A stretch of DNA of 64,000 nucleotides from an uncultured Candidatus Saccharibacteria bacterium (GCA_964437545.1 CAYTHH010000001.1:14381-78380), one strand, 5' to 3'. Counted from the first letter of the stretch, positions 10,145 to 32,024 are shown. Program-made: numbers and translations. The notes: a model not told the origin generated them from the sequence alone.

Positions 10145-10195
10145 CTGGCCAGAGCCGAAACCCCGATCCCGCCAATGCCGATAAAATGTATTTTC
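10145..10195 (-). pseudogene. murC 5' remnant (MKIHFIGIGGIGVSALA...) created by the duplication
   Basis: Reverse translation gives the exact murC N-terminus, followed by unrelated sequence and an early stop. Confidence 0.7.
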
Positions 10196-10232
10196 ATCTT
10201 ATGGGAAGTTCAATGAAAAAGGTTGAACCCTT
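10145..10232. repeat. 88-bp perfect direct repeat, second copy (first copy 6708-6795)
   Basis: Identical 88-mer ctggccagagccgaaaccccgatcccgccaatgccgataaaatgtattttcatcttatgggaagttcaatgaaaaaggttgaaccctt. It spans the HK 3' end, the intergenic region and the first 17 codons of murC. Confidence 0.9.
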
Positions 10233-11798
10233 ATCAATGCCGTCTGATTCTGCCCAAATTCTACCCGAATGCATTTCAACAAAGTGTTTAGCAATATATA
10301 ACCCAAGACCAGCTCCTTCGGGATGAGATTGAGATCCGATCACTCCCCGAGAAAAACTTCCAAATAGCTTAGCTAAATCTTTTTTACTCATTCCACCTCC
10401 AGTATCTTTTATTGTAATTTGAAATTTGGAATCTATAGTTTTAATATTAACCATTATCCCTCCTTTTTGTGTGTATTTTATGGCATTATCCACTAAGTTT
10501 AAAATAACCTGTCGTATTTTATTTTTATCTAACGTGGTTTTAGGAAGAGACTCAGTTGGTTTTTCAAGTTTTAAATAAAGTTTTTTCTTTTCTGCTGTAA
10601 TCTTTAAATCATTAATCACTCTCATGACTATTTCTTCTATTAAACATTCCTCTAGCTCAAGCTCTACTTTTCCTGATTCAATCCGAGAAATGCTTAAAAG
10701 ATCATTCACTAATTTAATTAATTTTTCATTGGAATTATATACATTTTCCAATGGCGTTTTAACTTTATCGACTAATTTTCCATAATAACCTTCAAGGATC
10801 ATTGAAATGTATCCCTTGATCGCAGTCAACGGTGTTCTGATTTGGTGAGAAGCGATGGAAATGAATTCCGATTTTGCACTGCTTAATTTTTCAACCTCTT
10901 TATAAGCGATTTGAAGTTTTTCGTTTAATATTGCTAATGTTTTGCGTTGTTCTATTTCGCTAAGAACACTTTTAATGAGTAGATAACCGAAAATGCAAAA
11001 GAGAGCTAAAATAATACCATATGATATTCTCCATAATAAAGTTTGAGCAGTAAGTATTTGAGAGAATAAAATTACTAAAATTATTCCTATTAATGTTTCT
11101 GTCAAAATAATTTTAATTCCAAATAACTGTTTAGCTATTATCGCATAAGCAGTGTAGCCTAAGAAAAAAATAATGGAAAAATTTCCAAATTGATAAAACT
11201 CATAACTGCCCCGGATGGCAGGAAAAACTACGTTAAAAACAATATTCATTATGAAGAATATTGAAAAGCCAAAGAAAAAATATTGTGTCTGAATTTTTTC
11301 TTTTGACGATAGCTTTAGAAATCTTATGAAGAGAATTATTAAAGATAATAACCAGATTATTCCCAGCATGGCAAAAGTCGGGAAAAAATTACCCAAAATA
11401 AGGTTTGTTCCCCAATCTTTCGATTCTATATCTTTAATAACCAAGGGCGTGAAAAGCGAGACAAGGGCGATGGTAACCGAAATAAAAAATATTATTTTTT
11501 CAAGAACAAGATATCTTTTTTGTTCTTTTGGGAATAAAAACGAAAAAAGAAATGTTGTGAAAAAGAATAAGGATAAAATAAAATATACAAGCCTATTCCA
11601 GATTAAAGAATTTGGTAACTGAGATGGAATGTCTGAAATAAATGCAAAAGTAATCCAAAGTAATGCTAAAAAGGTCATTACACAGAAAAGTTGATTTAAT
11701 TGGCTTTTTTTATTCGAAAAATAAACCAACAGGATTAATAAAATCCCTATGAAATCAATTAAAATTATGAGTATTGTTGAGATAAAAAGAATATCCAT
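10194..11798 (-). CDS. sensor histidine kinase, paralog of 6757..8337
   Basis: Same architecture. H-box ASHQIRTPLTAIKGY. C-terminus identical to the first kinase (KGSTFFIELPIR). Confidence 0.85.
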   Translation of the reverse strand: MDILFISTILIILIDFIGILLILLVYFSNKKSQLNQLFCVMTFLALLWITFAFISDIPSQLPNSLIWNRLVYFILSLFFFTTFLFSFLFPKEQKRYLVLEKIIFFISVTIALVSLFTPLVIKDIESKDWGTNLILGNFFPTFAMLGIIWLLSLIILFIRFLKLSSKEKIQTQYFFFGFSIFFIMNIVFNVVFPAIRGSYEFYQFGNFSIIFFLGYTAYAIIAKQLFGIKIILTETLIGIILVILFSQILTAQTLLWRISYGIILALFCIFGYLLIKSVLSEIEQRKTLAILNEKLQIAYKEVEKLSSAKSEFISIASHQIRTPLTAIKGYISMILEGYYGKLVDKVKTPLENVYNSNEKLIKLVNDLLSISRIESGKVELELEECLIEEIVMRVINDLKITAEKKKLYLKLEKPTESLPKTTLDKNKIRQVILNLVDNAIKYTQKGGIMVNIKTIDSKFQITIKDTGGGMSKKDLAKLFGSFSRGVIGSQSHPEGAGLGLYIAKHFVEMHSGRIWAESDGIDKGSTFFIELPIR

Positions 11799-11806
11799 TA
11801 AATATC

Positions 11807-13336
11807 TTATATAATGAATTTCATCTTACCACTTTTTGATAACTTAAACTCATTCTGCCCAAATTTTCGAATTTCAATCCTTGGGATACAAAGTTCAGAA
11901 TTATCTTCATAAGACCGTTTAAAATCATGGTTCCGTGTTAAAAGCGTATTCAAAATTAGGTGCTTATAATCTTCTTTTAACTTAATTTCTTCTTCTTGGG
12001 TTATGTTTTTATCTTTTTTTAACTCTAAGTAGATATAAAATCGCCAATCGCCATTCTCATCAGTTTTTTTAGATAACTTAAAGTTAGTAAAATTTGAGCT
12101 TTTATCAATTATATCTTGGATTGTCATGGGAAAAACATTTGCTCCGTCTAAAGAAATACAGCTTTCTCTCCCTTCTACAAATAAGAATGGCTGCGCATAT
12201 GGTTTAAAATAGGGAGCTTTTTCTTTAAGCTCACCCAGAAGGTCTATGCCCTCTTCCTTAAAAATTTCTAAAACCTTTTTGAATGAGATCATGCCGCCAA
12301 TATCTCGAATATTGTATCTTATTAACGGTATTGATCCTCTGAAAGTAATAATTAAATTCTCATCTTCTTCTTCGACAAAATAAGCAGAAGTATTCAACTG
12401 TGTTAAGCTTACAACATTTCTTTTTTTCCCCAAAATTTTTGCTTGAATGTTTTTATTACTGACAATAAAATCTTGTATTAAAGCTGTCAGGCAATTACCA
12501 TAACTTATTCCTCCTGCATCCGCTGTTCCGTAAACATCAACAATATTATTCAATTCTTTTGGTTCTTTGGCAAATTTATTTATTAGATTTTGTCGAAAAT
12601 CATAGGACATTCCCTCGCCGCCATAGTAAAATTTAATATTATGTTTTTTCCAATCTATCCCATCTTTTTCTCCAGTATCTAAAAATAATTTGAAAAAATA
12701 AGGATATCCGCCAAAAATTATTTGATCATACTTATTAATGAACTTTTTGATAATTGCTAATGTTCCTTCCAAATCAGACCCGGGAGTTGCTATAGTTAAT
12801 AAGCCTTTATTGCGTAATGCAATATCTTTCCAGAACCAAGTATTTAGTTCTCCTGCTATATAGTTGCCCAAAGAGAAACAAACAATGATAAGAGTGGATT
12901 TTTTTTGGGTTTGCCAAATGTTTCTTGCCATCATTTCAAAATAAAGAGAAATCATTTTGTCTTGAAATGAGTTCCTTGGCCAAAATACCGGTTCTCCAGT
13001 TGTGCCAGAAGTAGTTGCTAGCGTAAAGAGATCTGAATATGGTTCAAGAAGCCGTTCATCCAAATCATAATGAAAGATATAATTTTCTTTAGTTGTAACT
13101 GGCACATACTTTTTAAAATCTTCAATCGTTTGTATTTTTTCATGATTTTCAACCCCATTTTTCTTTAAAAAATCCTTATAAGCCGAAACTTTTTCTGCTA
13201 CTTCGTGAAAAGTGTTTAATGCCTTTTTTTCTCCTTGTTTTTCCCACCACTCTGCTGGTCTCGATGCAAAAAACTTATTCGCCCTATCAGGGTTAGATGT
13301 TATAAATTTTCGCATTATATTTCCTATTTTTGACAT
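11807..13336 (-). CDS. adenylate-forming enzyme of the PaaK / coenzyme F390 synthetase / CapK family
   Basis: LATTSGTTGEPVFWPR AMP-binding motif, 509 aa. Confidence 0.6.
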   Translation of the reverse strand: MSKIGNIMRKFITSNPDRANKFFASRPAEWWEKQGEKKALNTFHEVAEKVSAYKDFLKKNGVENHEKIQTIEDFKKYVPVTTKENYIFHYDLDERLLEPYSDLFTLATTSGTTGEPVFWPRNSFQDKMISLYFEMMARNIWQTQKKSTLIIVCFSLGNYIAGELNTWFWKDIALRNKGLLTIATPGSDLEGTLAIIKKFINKYDQIIFGGYPYFFKLFLDTGEKDGIDWKKHNIKFYYGGEGMSYDFRQNLINKFAKEPKELNNIVDVYGTADAGGISYGNCLTALIQDFIVSNKNIQAKILGKKRNVVSLTQLNTSAYFVEEEDENLIITFRGSIPLIRYNIRDIGGMISFKKVLEIFKEEGIDLLGELKEKAPYFKPYAQPFLFVEGRESCISLDGANVFPMTIQDIIDKSSNFTNFKLSKKTDENGDWRFYIYLELKKDKNITQEEEIKLKEDYKHLILNTLLTRNHDFKRSYEDNSELCIPRIEIRKFGQNEFKLSKSGKMKFII

Positions 13337-13365
13337 AGTTTTATTTTTCTATTAATAAAAAACTC

Positions 13366-13395
13366 CATTTTTAATGGAGTTCTGCAAATTTTAAG
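13366..13395 (-). terminator. intrinsic terminator
   Basis: Minus-strand RNA aacuccauu-aaaa-auggaguu followed by UUUUUUA. Confidence 0.5.
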
Positions 13396-13530
13396 ACATC
13401 AATTTTTACTTGAAGAAAAAATATTAGTATTTTTCTCATATGATATAGAGGATTCATATATTATTTTATCTTAAAATATTAGAAGTTGTCAACAAATCGC
13501 ATGGATCTATAATATATTGTAAAAAAACAG

Positions 13531-28935: not shown

Positions 28936-29354
28936 AGATTTTTTTCATTATATTGATATACCAGCTTGTTAGCTATTATAGCATAAATGATATTCTGGCA
29001 CCTCGGGAACAACTTACTAGCTGCTATATTAATTTACTTGATTCAAAAACAAAACTCGGATATTTTTTCCGAGTCTTGGAATTATCTTGAGCAGTCCCAA
29101 GTAAATATTAGGGACTGCTCAGGGTCTAGGAAGTTTCAGCACCATTTGCACCGGGTCATCAGGGTGATACGGCCATGCCCGTCCTGGGCTGAAACTTCTT
29201 GAGCTAGGATTGGCAATCAGCATGACATCCTCCTTTGCCCTTGAAGTTTCTAATTTGAATGTTAGAACAAAATTAAAAATTAGTCAATAGTTATAGCTGG
29301 GGGTTTAGTTATGAGGTAATATTGAATCTATTTAATATAGATTATTTAGGATTA

Positions 29355-29400
29355 TTAAAAACTGGCGGCTGAAGATGTTAATCATCTGTCGAGCCGCCAG
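29355..29400 (-). terminator. intrinsic terminator after the island membrane-protein gene
   Basis: 9-bp stem ctggcggct/agccgccag followed on the minus strand by UUUUUAAUAAUC. Confidence 0.55.
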
Positions 29401-29416
29401 TCAGGTTGAGGCGTTA

Positions 29417-30286
29417 TTACGCCATAGTGCCGTTAACCGACACATGAAAAATTCTTTTGGAAACGATCTCCCAGTTCACCACGCCAATTGCGGCACCGAG
29501 AAATCCGCCAAATATTACGAGCAATGCTTGCTGAACGAAAGATGTGGATGTCTGGACAAGCCAGATGTAGCATATTGTGCCGCCAAGCGTTCCGTCAATC
29601 GCACAGAGTATTCGCTTATGTGAATGAATTAGCCTGAATAGGTGCCAGGCGAATTGGACTGAAAAACGGAGTATCTCCCCTACAATAATAGCAAGATACA
29701 TCCACAAATCCCACAGAAGGAATTTTATTACTCTGAAAGTTCCTTGCAGAATCCATTTTGCGGCATTGACATAGGTAAGGGGAACTTCTTCGCAGTCGTG
29801 GAGCTGTCCCAAATAATCCCAACAACGATGGTCTACAAGCATTGCGCCAATACAAGCAAGAAGAACAAAAAGGCCACTAAAAGCTATGACTGTTAAACAA
29901 TAGCACAAGATGAGCAGTAAGGTTTCTGTGATTATTATTCTCATCTCTCCCATACTTGTTGGTAATGCCGATACGTCTATAGCAATTGCAATGATAAGGG
30001 GCAGAGCACAAAGCATACCGAAGTATAAAAATGGATGTGGCCTGGGAAACCATTCCCTTACTAAAACGATCATGTTCTTCCACATATCTGCACTCTTTCT
30101 CCCGAGAGTGCGCAGAAAAGCAATGGGAATCGCCCAGCAAATTTCGCGGAACTCATAACTAACATATCCGCCAGCGAGTCCAGCGATGAAGCCAAGCCAC
30201 CAATAGCTTGGCGTGAATATGAGCGCCATTATGCAAAAGCTGGCGCCACCGATAAAACAAGCAACCGCAATTTTTCTTGTTTCCAT
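29417..30286 (-). CDS. hypothetical multi-TM membrane protein in a higher-GC island
   Basis: 289 aa, at least 7 hydrophobic segments. Local GC is clearly above the flanking sequence. Confidence 0.5.
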   Translation of the reverse strand: METRKIAVACFIGGASFCIMALIFTPSYWWLGFIAGLAGGYVSYEFREICWAIPIAFLRTLGRKSADMWKNMIVLVREWFPRPHPFLYFGMLCALPLIIAIAIDVSALPTSMGEMRIIITETLLLILCYCLTVIAFSGLFVLLACIGAMLVDHRCWDYLGQLHDCEEVPLTYVNAAKWILQGTFRVIKFLLWDLWMYLAIIVGEILRFSVQFAWHLFRLIHSHKRILCAIDGTLGGTICYIWLVQTSTSFVQQALLVIFGGFLGAAIGVVNWEIVSKRIFHVSVNGTMA

Positions 30287-30581
30287 GAGAAACTCCTTTC
30301 AAGTTTCAAGGTACAACTTTCCCGCGAAACTCCGCGGAGAGACTATCGAGCATAATCCCGATATTATTAATATTAATACACATTATAATACAGTAGTCAA
30401 GATTCGCGATACAAGGCAATACTTCAATAATTTAGCAACGCTGATTAAAAACCGCCTTAATAAAAAGGCGATATTTCTTTGCAGTGTTCCTTGGTCTAGA
30501 ACCAATGTTTCAAAGGAAGATTTGGGTTTTTTGCTAACCCATCTCGGCCTGATCTAACATTGGTTGCTGGAGACGACTTAC

Positions 30582-30809
30582 TTAAACTATTTGATAACTC
30601 TCTCCTTTCCCAACTGCATATCTGACAAATTTCAGAGAGTGAGCAAAAACTTCAGGATTAGCAGGTTGATTCACAGAGATAGAAATATCCAGACGTTCTT
30701 GCCAGCAAAAGTTTATTAACGATATCCATTGAGGGTCGAGATTGGATTTCGCCCACTCAATTCCTGCGAGTTTAGAGTTGACTTCTCCTTTATGTAAACC
30801 GTAAAGCAT
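30582..30809 (-). pseudogene. C-terminal fragment of an ANT(3'')/AadA-like aminoglycoside nucleotidyltransferase
   Basis: YGLHKGEVNSKLAGIEWAKSNLDPQWISLINFCWQ...FVRYAVGKGE aligns with AadA YSAVTGKIAPKDVAADWAMERLPAQYQPVILEARQ...FVHYVKGEITK. The N-terminal nucleotidyltransferase domain is absent. Confidence 0.5.
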
Positions 30810-30924
30810 ACGGCTTTACAGCTATTCCGAAGTTTTGGCGAATGATAGTCCATTTGCCTAGGCTCATTTTTAGTATAACAAAAGAAAGTTTGGTTTGAAA
30901 TATATATCATTTTAAAAAAGAAGA

Positions 30925-30962
30925 AGGGGTTATCCGCGAGATGCGAATAACCCCTTTTTTGT
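30925..30962 (+). terminator. intrinsic terminator
   Basis: ggggttat-ccgcgagatgcga-ataacccc followed by TTTTTTGTGG. Confidence 0.5.
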
Positions 30963-31265
30963 GGCGGACGCAAGACTTTAAAATATTAAAAAGTTTAAGT
31001 GTCCAAGTTTTCAAGGCTCTACTTATTACTGCGGGAGAAACCCAGACGCCGAGCCACAGTGCGAATTCTTATCGCCAAACCAGCCCGTTTCAAACTCGAT
31101 GTAGCCAGAGTCAAAGGAGAAAAAGAGCACGCCCGAGAAAAAGCAGTCAGCATTAAAAGAATATTCGTTGCCCGCGCAGTCAATCCACAGGTCATAGTAG
31201 TTCTGCAGTCGTCGGGGATGCGTCAGTAACACCAACCCTTAATATCAAGGCAGTTATTTGACAGA

Positions 31266-31953
31266 GTGCAGGAAGTTTTTAAGGGCTACGATAAAAAGCC
31301 GTTTAGATACGCCTGTAAACCTTTCGCCTTCAGGGGTTTAATAAAGTGTGCCGATTGCGGTTGCACCATTACGGCGGAAACATCAAAACATAAATATAAT
31401 TATTACAGTTGCACCAATTTCAAAAAAGCACATACCAAAAGGCTCTATATCAACGAAGAAAGGCTATTAGAGCCAGTCTATAGCGTTTTGAGGCATATAA
31501 GGCTCACAGACGGGCAAATGCCGTTTAATAGCGGGTTTGAAGCAGACTGACGAAGCGAAAGATAAGTTCTTTGAGGCTTCAATGGAAAGCCTACGGGGAG
31601 ATTATGATAAATATGAAAAGAGAAAAAGCAACTTACTTGATAGATTGGCTGACGAAGAAATAACCAAAGAAGATTATGATAAAAAATTAAATGAATATCA
31701 GATAAAACAATCTCTGATAAATACCGAGATGGCAAAGCACCACAAGGCTGATAATGAGTATTACATTACGGTTGCTATGATTTTAAGCCTTGCTAAAAGG
31801 GCTTATAAGATATTCAAAAGTTCTGAACCAATGGAGAAAAGGGCGTTTCTTAATTTCTTACTTCAGAACTCCAAATTACAGGGCAGAAAGTTCACTTTTG
31901 AACTTAAAAAGCCGTTCAATGCGGCTCTTGTTGCTCACGAGCGTTCAAACTTG
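31266..31953 (+). pseudogene. large serine recombinase, C-terminal remnant (frameshifted; catalytic resolvase domain missing)
   Basis: Zinc-ribbon recombinase motif LIKCADCGCTITAETSKHKYNYYSC, then a coiled-coil segment in a second frame (31537 onward). Ends against tRNA-Gln. Confidence 0.65.
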
Positions 31954-32024
31954 CTGCGGGGCTTGGATTCGAACCAAGATAGTCACCTTCAAAGGGTGAT
32001 GTCCTACCATTAGACGACCCCGCA
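31954..32024 (-). tRNA. tRNA-Gln (anticodon TTG)
   Basis: Cloverleaf: acceptor TGCGGGG/CCCCGCA, anticodon loop CTTTGAA, T-loop TTCGAAT, discriminator G. Confidence 0.8.

Follow-up and report, generated by a model that had tools for sequence, protein, structure and literature searches.

What lies behind the tRNA-Gln gene of this genome, and how did it get there? In the 64,000-nucleotide (nt) stretch that was analysed (GCA_964437545.1 CAYTHH010000001.1:14381-78380; hereafter the window), the DNA between about 29.1 kb and the 3′ end of tRNA-Gln(UUG) had been described, in a reading of the sequence alone, as a decayed integrative element of higher GC content marked by the remnant of a large serine recombinase (LSR). 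Our analysis indicated that a mobile element carrying an LSR very probably inserted at the 3′ end of this tRNA gene and that the locus is now an immobile scar. The host is a Parcubacteria-type (Patescibacteria) bacterium: the DnaX encoded next to the tRNA is 94% identical to that of the metagenome-assembled genome (MAG) KR13_S3.mb.140 and 57-75% identical to the DnaX of many MAGs labelled Parcubacteria, Nealsonbacteria, Wildermuthbacteria, and Paceibacterota. Three features define the junction between chromosome and former element.

31953-32024, minus strand: tRNA-Gln(UUG), anticodon ttg, apparently intact (ARAGORN; Rfam tRNA, 65 bits), a conserved neighbour of dnaX.
31230-31952, plus strand: LSR pseudogene, the C-terminal 244 of about 505 residues (Pfam, homologues, and alignments A1 and A5).
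31949-31962, no strand assigned: presumed recombination core or junction, ACTTGCTGCGGGGC, comprising the 3′ acceptor strand of the tRNA plus 2-4 nt.

The tRNA-Gln was recovered where it had been placed. At its 3′ end (31953) the chromosome meets the former element, the recombinase remnant directly abutting the tRNA. What survives in the remnant is the final part of the recombinase domain, followed by the zinc ribbon and a C-terminal region that putatively forms a coiled coil. Zn_ribbon_recom (PF13408) was identified by Pfam at an E value of 1.1e-11 and 45 bits against a cut-off of 25, the columns of the CxxC…C zinc-ribbon motif are invariant in alignment A1, and the coiled-coil region, for which Pfam gave a faint match (APG6_N, E 0.085), aligns full-length with relatives. 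Alignment A5 reconstructed a single 2-nt deletion near 31519, which yields two open reading frames (ORFs), one at 31266-31550 with the zinc ribbon and the other at 31537-32013 with the coiled coil; the frame of the remnant continues into the tRNA antisense (…NLLRGLDSNQ…). At its other end, the remnant stops at about 31228, the position at which the blastn matches of every homologous locus begin. The catalytic resolvase-type domain with its serine nucleophile is absent from the window, with homology starting at residue ~262 of 505, and Pfam found no Recombinase domain (PF07508) in the window ORFs, only its last ~15 residues (HQPLISRQLFDRVQ) being left. The sequence-only reading had correctly called a frameshifted LSR C-terminus that has lost its catalytic domain, whereas its estimate that two-thirds of the protein survive must be reduced to half. 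Devoid of the catalytic and most of the recombinase domain, the window copy is predicted to be incapable of activity.

The joined translation of the remnant identified 19 relatives at 47-82% identity and is 79% identical to the metagenomic recombinase P0001. Relatives with a complete N-terminus show the Pfam series Resolvase, Recombinase, and Zn_ribbon_recom and match PHROG 95, 'integrase'; the catalytic domain was found in P0012, in P0014, and in the ORF of locus L002 (ARVST…). The latter locus (GCA_018896765.1) contains a 505-aa ORF (150-1667), complete in sequence, that ends inside tRNA-Asn (1628-1700), such that the last 40 nt of the gene overlap the tRNA, as is also seen in L003. The copy in L004 is frameshifted and borders directly on tRNA-Gln(CUG), at one edge of an island that spans at least 10 kb; besides a second serine recombinase and a restriction-modification system, this island encodes a tyrosine integrase and helix-turn-helix (HTH) proteins, and the core genes ftsX, ftsE, and prfB come next. 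Contig L001 stops in the tRNA, right after …LLRG*. In all three of L001, L002, and L004 the recombinase ORF enters the tRNA at the same point as the window remnant, and the relatives as a group converge on a tRNA with their final codons within its 3′ end, the targets being Gln-UUG, Gln-CUG, and Asn-GUU. From these comparisons of sequence, tRNA 3′ ends seem to be the targets of a serine-recombinase family in Patescibacteria whose genes have their stop region inside the tRNA. Literature searches yielded no account of this family, nor of any Patescibacteria serine recombinase located at a tRNA gene.

Several side observations concern the same relatives. Six contigs from different samples (L004-L009) have the same frameshift in common: 2 nt are inserted after …GLKQT, some 30 nt away from where the window has its 2-nt deletion, and the gene is thereby split into a 368-aa ORF and a C-terminal ORF. 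The gene may be a pseudogene that has spread widely, or the shift may be tolerated or programmed. In L001, a GC-rich stretch of ~330 nt (520-880), closed by CCAGGATGCCC…GGGCATCCTGG, sits between the C-terminal fragment of a second recombinase (3-452) and the main recombinase gene. It resembles a structured RNA and has no Rfam match, and an Rfam search of L001, L107, L109, and L110 returned tRNA only.

The chromosomal site was then compared among related genomes. The order CysS-GtrA-DnaX-tRNA-Gln is conserved, with tRNA-Gln following dnaX in 71 of 80 related loci, and the DNA beyond the tRNA differs among these loci and is unrelated from one to another. The closest relative, L020 (DnaX 94% identical), is 83-87% identical in DNA through cysS, gtrA, and dnaX; past tRNA-Gln it continues into unrelated DNA without any match in the window, and the remnant is absent. 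In L022 and L023, two comparison genomes ~70% identical in DnaX, the tRNA is followed by orthologues of window genes located at 17.7-14.5 kb and 6.8-4.2 kb. L025, L063, L068, and L083 carry, beyond tRNA-Gln, more distantly related serine recombinases (27-32% identity), situated 70-1700 nt from the tRNA on the opposite strand and pointing at it. Furthermore, among 41 contigs truncated in this flank, 6 end no more than 5 nt from the tRNA 3′ end and 10 within ~50 nt, whereas ~0.02 contigs would be expected within 5 nt if ends were random; assemblies therefore break exactly at the tRNA 3′ end, as they do where co-existing strains differ. With relatives in the same position at a tRNA, the remnant absent from the nearest relative, and a variable site, these data support the proposal that the tRNA-adjacent remnant marks a former integration.

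Other peculiarities of the site were noticed in passing. The same-species Logan contigs L016, L017, and L019 all end 28 nt into tRNA-Gln (window 31997), which fits an assembly-graph branch in or at the tRNA. Both L020 (9340-10077) and L021 have a ~700-nt insertion between dnaX and tRNA-Gln, the ORF of which combines an N-terminal HTH-like part with an LYWGEGSK motif reminiscent of LAGLIDADG homing endonucleases; tRNA-Gln is identical in the two loci, though their DnaX proteins are 94% and 75% identical, respectively, to that of the window. Locus L053 (11110-15555) has two tRNA-Gln genes (UUG and CUG) 4.4 kb apart with no recognisable recombinase of this family between them, and L064 (3016-3192) has two tRNA-Gln(UUG) genes ~100 nt apart, the second with an aberrant 5′ part. 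Both pairs are further signs of turnover at the site. Since the window genes between 17.8 and 31.9 kb are absent after tRNA-Gln in L022 and L023, that whole segment was considered as a single big island. This was unsupported: it encodes ordinary cell genes (a family 2 [GT2] glycosyltransferase, a flavoprotein, a MacB-type efflux system, an extracytoplasmic function [ECF] sigma factor, and a P-type ATPase) and is of average composition.

Next to the recombinase half, the remaining DNA down to 30.5 kb consists of the following pieces of other genes.

31026-31229, minus strand: the last 67 codons of a gene of a ~290-aa family (…LLTHPxRL…DLWIDCAGxE…GSASGFLPQ*), with homologues P0229-P0231 at E values of 3e-17 to 7e-10.
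30835-31025, minus strand: the non-coding tail of that gene (alignment A2; terminator and promoter scans).
30582-30809, minus strand: a probable 3′ fragment of an AadA_C/DUF4111-type nucleotidyltransferase, about the last 75 of ~276 residues (weak Pfam match, tblastn).

The first two are additions to the sequence-only reading, which had overlooked both. The coding fragment is cut at the junction with the recombinase remnant, longer versions exist in L110 and L111, and no Pfam, PHROG, or NCBIfam match was obtained for the ~290-aa family. Its tail has an intrinsic terminator (30924-30956) and a promoter-like site (30872-30899), and it resembles L110 through the stop codon, the terminator, and the promoter-like site to ~30835, being partly kept in L109 as well. 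In the third piece, AadA_C scored 16 bits (E 0.013), under the Pfam cut-off of 22, whereas tblastn aligned it at an E value of 5e-7 and 35% identity with residues ~201-268 of a 276-aa Deinococcus 'aminoglycoside adenylyltransferase domain-containing protein'; NCBIfam and the PDB gave nothing. The truncated ANT(3'')-like gene claimed here is supported by the tblastn match and falls short of the Pfam threshold. The N-terminal nucleotidyltransferase domain is absent, with no such ORF or Pfam match upstream of 30809, where the tail of the other gene lies, and a terminator-like hairpin (30523-30541) is found beside the fragment. In this way, three unrelated 3′ gene ends are joined head to tail, an arrangement typical of decayed inserted DNA, and none of the three fragments is expected to work.

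These features suggest the following course of events. A mobile element bearing an LSR would have entered the chromosome downstream of dnaX, at the 3′ end of tRNA-Gln(UUG). The recombinase gene would have been placed at the very edge of the element and aimed at the tRNA, with its last codons (…LLR-G/R) forming the antisense of the acceptor stem; an attachment (att) site that overlaps the end of the integrase gene would let insertion restore the tRNA. Later deletions and illegitimate joins may then have stripped the recombinase of its catalytic half and the element of most of its DNA, leaving the recombinase half with its 2-nt deletion, the 3′ end and terminator of the ~290-aa gene, and the probable AadA_C-type 3′ end as the scar.

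The position of the crossover can be narrowed tentatively. In L107, the recombinase terminates with the 11-nt sequence TTTGCTCCGCA, which recurs at a distance of 1.3 kb as the 3′ end of a tRNA-Asn, an arrangement that may reflect two tandem insertions. Because of this 11-nt repeat and of the overlap between ORF and tRNA in four loci, the recombination core would lie within the last ~11 nt of the tRNA, and the family would have an attachment site that overlaps the terminus of the recombinase gene as well as the tRNA 3′ end. The second att site was sought in the window with the 25-nt tRNA 3′ end, the 14-nt junction, the 9-nt core, and the inverted P half-site, and nothing beyond chance was found: one 9/10 match, at 31026, is within chance expectation, and a repeat finder returned short, chance-level families only. 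In particular, the attL/attR-like copy of the tRNA-Gln end that might have been looked for near 29.1 kb did not turn up in any of these searches. Given a serine recombinase with a core of ~11 nt, a long copy of the tRNA would not be expected here. Mapping of the crossover from the tRNA-Gln genes of relatives gave no readable hybrid boundary, the differences being compensatory and spread over the entire tRNA.

A phage as the source of the inserted DNA was considered and gained no support: no phage structural or replication genes are present in 29-32 kb, and PHROGs matched the recombinase alone.

Several points weigh against a decayed LSR element at this tRNA, or limit what can be said of it. 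The left boundary, and with it the extent of the element, is not defined by any att core, copy of the tRNA end, or inverted half-site. In viral contigs, the recombinase family had one match, at 24% identity, and the family of the membrane protein described below had none; both families are essentially off viral contigs, and the element may have been an island or a phage. Among the homologues, those of L004-L009 carry a frameshift of their own and that of L001 is short at the N-terminus, and the sole ORF complete in sequence, that of L002, is a prediction from sequence. The comparison with L020 covers 560 nt past the tRNA. No empty site was found in this species, the ten same-species contigs being 99.97-100% identical to the window where they overlap it.

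The composition of the locus bears both on the insertion and on how far it reaches. As claimed, GC content is higher from about 29.1 kb to tRNA-Gln: it is 41.1% at 29080-31952 against 36.7% in the whole window (+4.4 points), above 99.7% of the windows of the same length. Tetranucleotide composition is likewise non-uniform, 29001-32000 ranking second as an outlier (z 2.9) among the 3-kb windows of the 64 kb. The increase in GC is limited and uneven, with bumps at 29.4-30.3 kb (0.445) and 30.75-31.5 kb (0.43-0.44) and average GC in between, and single 1-kb windows elsewhere in the 64 kb reach 0.41-0.435. As a separate observation, the top tetranucleotide outlier is 10500-13500 (z 3.7), a segment of low GC (~0.28-0.32) that holds two long ORFs (10194-11798 and 11807-13336) and has no counterpart at the syntenic place in L022 or L023; possibly it was acquired as well.

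The first of the two GC bumps coincides with a gene of quite a different character from the fragments described above, together with its flanks.

29417-30286, minus strand: an intact gene for a 289-aa multi-pass membrane protein of ~7-8 helices (hydropathy scan; ends conserved in alignment A3), with GC 0.445 and GC at third codon positions (GC3) 0.45.
30278-30472, minus strand: the upstream part of the cassette, with a terminator (30451-30472), a -35-like TTGAC (30396-30400), and a structured leader (30368-30278).
29320-29416, minus strand: the 3′ flank of the cassette, with a stop-codon hairpin, a terminator (CTGGCGGC…GCCGCCAG plus a T-run, 29362-29400), and a short AT hairpin.

This is the gene that the sequence-only reading had described as a seven-transmembrane protein with its own terminator and as a possible selected payload of the element; multi-pass ORF and terminator were both confirmed. 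Its being without recognisable family holds for curated collections, no Pfam, NCBIfam, or PHROG family having been matched, and fails otherwise, since 719 representative relatives (E ≤ 0.001) in 85 clusters make up a large family that is Patescibacteria throughout wherever a name is given. The protein keeps the invariant residues of that family. An AF2 model of medium confidence (pLDDT 73) gave no match better than E 0.4 in a Foldseek search of the PDB.

The flanks of the gene are kept across genomes as well, the upstream 60-170 nt at 77-89% and the downstream 60-92 nt at 81-92%, and the 3′ flank is conserved at the same position in at least 7 other loci. Four hairpins make up the fold of the 87-nt leader, and the Shine-Dalgarno sequence and the start codon are covered by the final two. 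In alignment A4 (11 sequences), 91% of cells are paired and 9 pairs changed on both sides, a value that 0 of 500 shuffles reached; this covariation is suggestive only, because the structure was derived from the same small alignment that was used for the count. The leader covariance model R1 matches solely upstream of this gene family, including three loci outside the training set, and Rfam has no match for the leader, which we regard as a candidate cis-regulatory RNA. As side observations, the leader was also seen upstream of the homologues in L100, L104, L112, L113, L116-L118, L120, L121, L123, L124, L126, L127, L142, L145, and L146, and the codon for Glu-2 (GAA/GAG) covaries with an upstream partner in the leader.

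Did this cassette arrive with the recombinase? A serious alternative, falling only a little short of probable, is that the scar comprises ~30.5-31.95 kb only and that the cassette and the hairpins next to it (29.05-30.48 kb) are independent residents or a separate insertion. In 25 other loci (L100, L102, and L113-L144), the GC content of the cassette gene is 40-60%, mostly 48-60%, with flanks at 36-58%; it tops the flanks by a mean of 8 points, and its GC3 reaches z values up to 10 relative to neighbouring ORFs. The rise at 29.4-30.3 kb is then a trait of the gene family, possibly a result of horizontal transfer or of nucleotide-level selection, and therefore no evidence of island membership; part of the compositional deviation of the locus is accounted for by the high GC that this family has of its own. 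The cassette also comes with a promoter, leader, and terminator of its own that are conserved from genome to genome, and in other loci the genes around it are unrelated, most of them having housekeeping or transport roles. In L116, a CorA-type transporter gene comes directly downstream and a gene of the TerC family ~1.5 kb upstream, and in the window the following gene is that of a P-type ATPase. The gene was found in 46 further loci, and in none of them is it close to a serine recombinase, an AadA fragment, or a member of the ~290-aa family. As it is never found beside this recombinase elsewhere, the 'selected payload' is possible but unshown.

Other observations speak for a joint arrival. 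The cassette lies inside a single contiguous deviant stretch that abuts the tRNA, and no cassette gene follows tRNA-Gln in L022 and L023. Furthermore, a tRNA gene is located no more than 200 nt upstream of the cassette gene in 4 of the 25 other loci and 78 nt downstream of it in one more. Such genomes have about one tRNA gene per 20 kb, so this frequency is far above expectation and fits delivery to tRNA sites. However it came to this position, the cassette is expected, judging from its sequence, to be the sole functional unit in the deviant stretch. A bolder proposal, which we offer as rather unlikely at present, is that 30472-29320 is a self-contained cassette that circulates in Patescibacteria, often beside tRNA genes, and that its leader would be a new cis-regulatory RNA for a membrane protein specific to the candidate phyla radiation (CPR). 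If this were true, the 'surviving payload' would be a real biological object and the recombinase stub the trace of one vehicle.

Past the cassette lies one more structured feature.

29050-29200, either strand: three consecutive strong hairpins, at 29050-29078, 29086-29125, and 29128-29200 (fold z -6.2 and -5.6).

The hairpin at 29050-29078 is terminator-like on the minus strand in the terminator scan. The three had no match in Rfam, the rest of the window, the fetched loci, or viral contigs, and an Rfam search of 28-33 kb at E values up to 1 returned tRNA only. The strong hairpins reported at this end are thus real, three in number with z values near -6, whereas nothing ties them to a boundary of the element. 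A 33-codon ORF (MLIANPSSRSFSPGRAWPYHPDDPVQMVLKLPRP) at 29123-29223 on the minus strand, preceded by AAGGAGG at good spacing, overlaps the longest of them and could be a leftover gene start or a chance ORF.

It is improbable, in our view, that there was no integration at this tRNA and that an ordinary rearrangement at a synteny breakpoint left a piece of recombinase there by chance or through recombination between related sequences. The tRNA is indeed a synteny break, as the orthologues found there in L022 and L023 illustrate, and the three unrelated fragments are joined without repeats. On the other hand, the remnant meets the tRNA in the same register and orientation as the recombinases of L001, L002, and L004, down to LLR(G/R) on the acceptor stem, a coincidence that chance placement fails to explain. 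Hardly credible is the suggestion that the recombinase half is a retained truncated protein, a zinc ribbon plus coiled coil that binds att-like DNA or blocks incoming recombinases and so confers tRNA-site immunity: its 720 nt do carry a single disabling indel, the protein identity is 79-80% to relatives with an uninterrupted C-terminal half, several database entries are C-terminal-only proteins of 145-270 aa, and the arrangement is identical in contigs from many samples, but the 2-nt deletion parts the zinc ribbon from the coiled coil, the upstream junction places a stop codon in frame at 31227 and offers no recognisable start signal, most of the 'C-terminal-only' entries lie on contigs of 1-4 kb or are mis-called (such as that of L002, where the NCBI annotation covers the last 266 residues alone of the 505-aa ORF, as 'zinc beta ribbon domain-containing protein'), and the same-species contigs are too nearly identical to be informative on selection.

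Accepting a decayed LSR element behind tRNA-Gln, we compared it with known systems. Family homologues with a complete N-terminus share the three-domain architecture of the serine integrases of the phiC31, Bxb1, and A118 types, of which the window copy keeps the zinc ribbon and the C-terminal region, putatively a coiled coil, but neither the catalytic domain nor most of the recombinase domain. Where the serine integrases characterised so far usually have a protein-coding gene as their target, this family is found at the 3′ ends of the three tRNA genes named above, with its ORF overlapping the tRNA. The nearest NCBIfam models to the L002 protein are CcrB, of the CcrA/CcrB/CcrC recombinases of SCCmec, and XisF, at 115 and 92 bits, respectively; these scores are far under the cut-offs of 900 and 375, and the protein is not an equivalog of either. 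SCCmec inserts at the extreme 3′ end of the housekeeping gene rlmH/orfX, which stays functional; here the target is a tRNA instead of a protein gene and the host belongs to the Patescibacteria. With the tRNA islands and prophage remnants that carry tyrosine integrases (P4-like), the locus shares adjacency to a tRNA 3′ end, deviant composition, variability, decayed integrase and cargo fragments, and reuse of the site. It differs from them in its serine recombinase and in the lack of a long direct repeat of the tRNA, the 11 nt in L107 being the sole repeat seen. As for AadA/ANT(3'')-type enzymes (AadA_C, DUF4111), the fragment at 30582-30809 aligns with their C-terminal domain but represents ~27% of the protein, has no catalytic N-terminal domain, is 35% identical, and shows no sign of aminoglycoside specificity.

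Taken together, the locus is an ordinary fossil of an integrative element in an unusual host group. It indicates that the streamlined genomes of Patescibacteria carry decaying integrative elements and that a recurrent insertion hotspot exists behind dnaX-tRNA-Gln. Automated annotation under-calls recombinase genes of this kind, as the shortened entry for L002 illustrates. Of what the element left behind, or what stands beside it, the tRNA-targeting habit of the recombinase and the conserved, structured, GC-anomalous membrane-protein cassette are of most interest, and the tRNA-targeting family could give new site-specific integrases for organisms without genetic tools.

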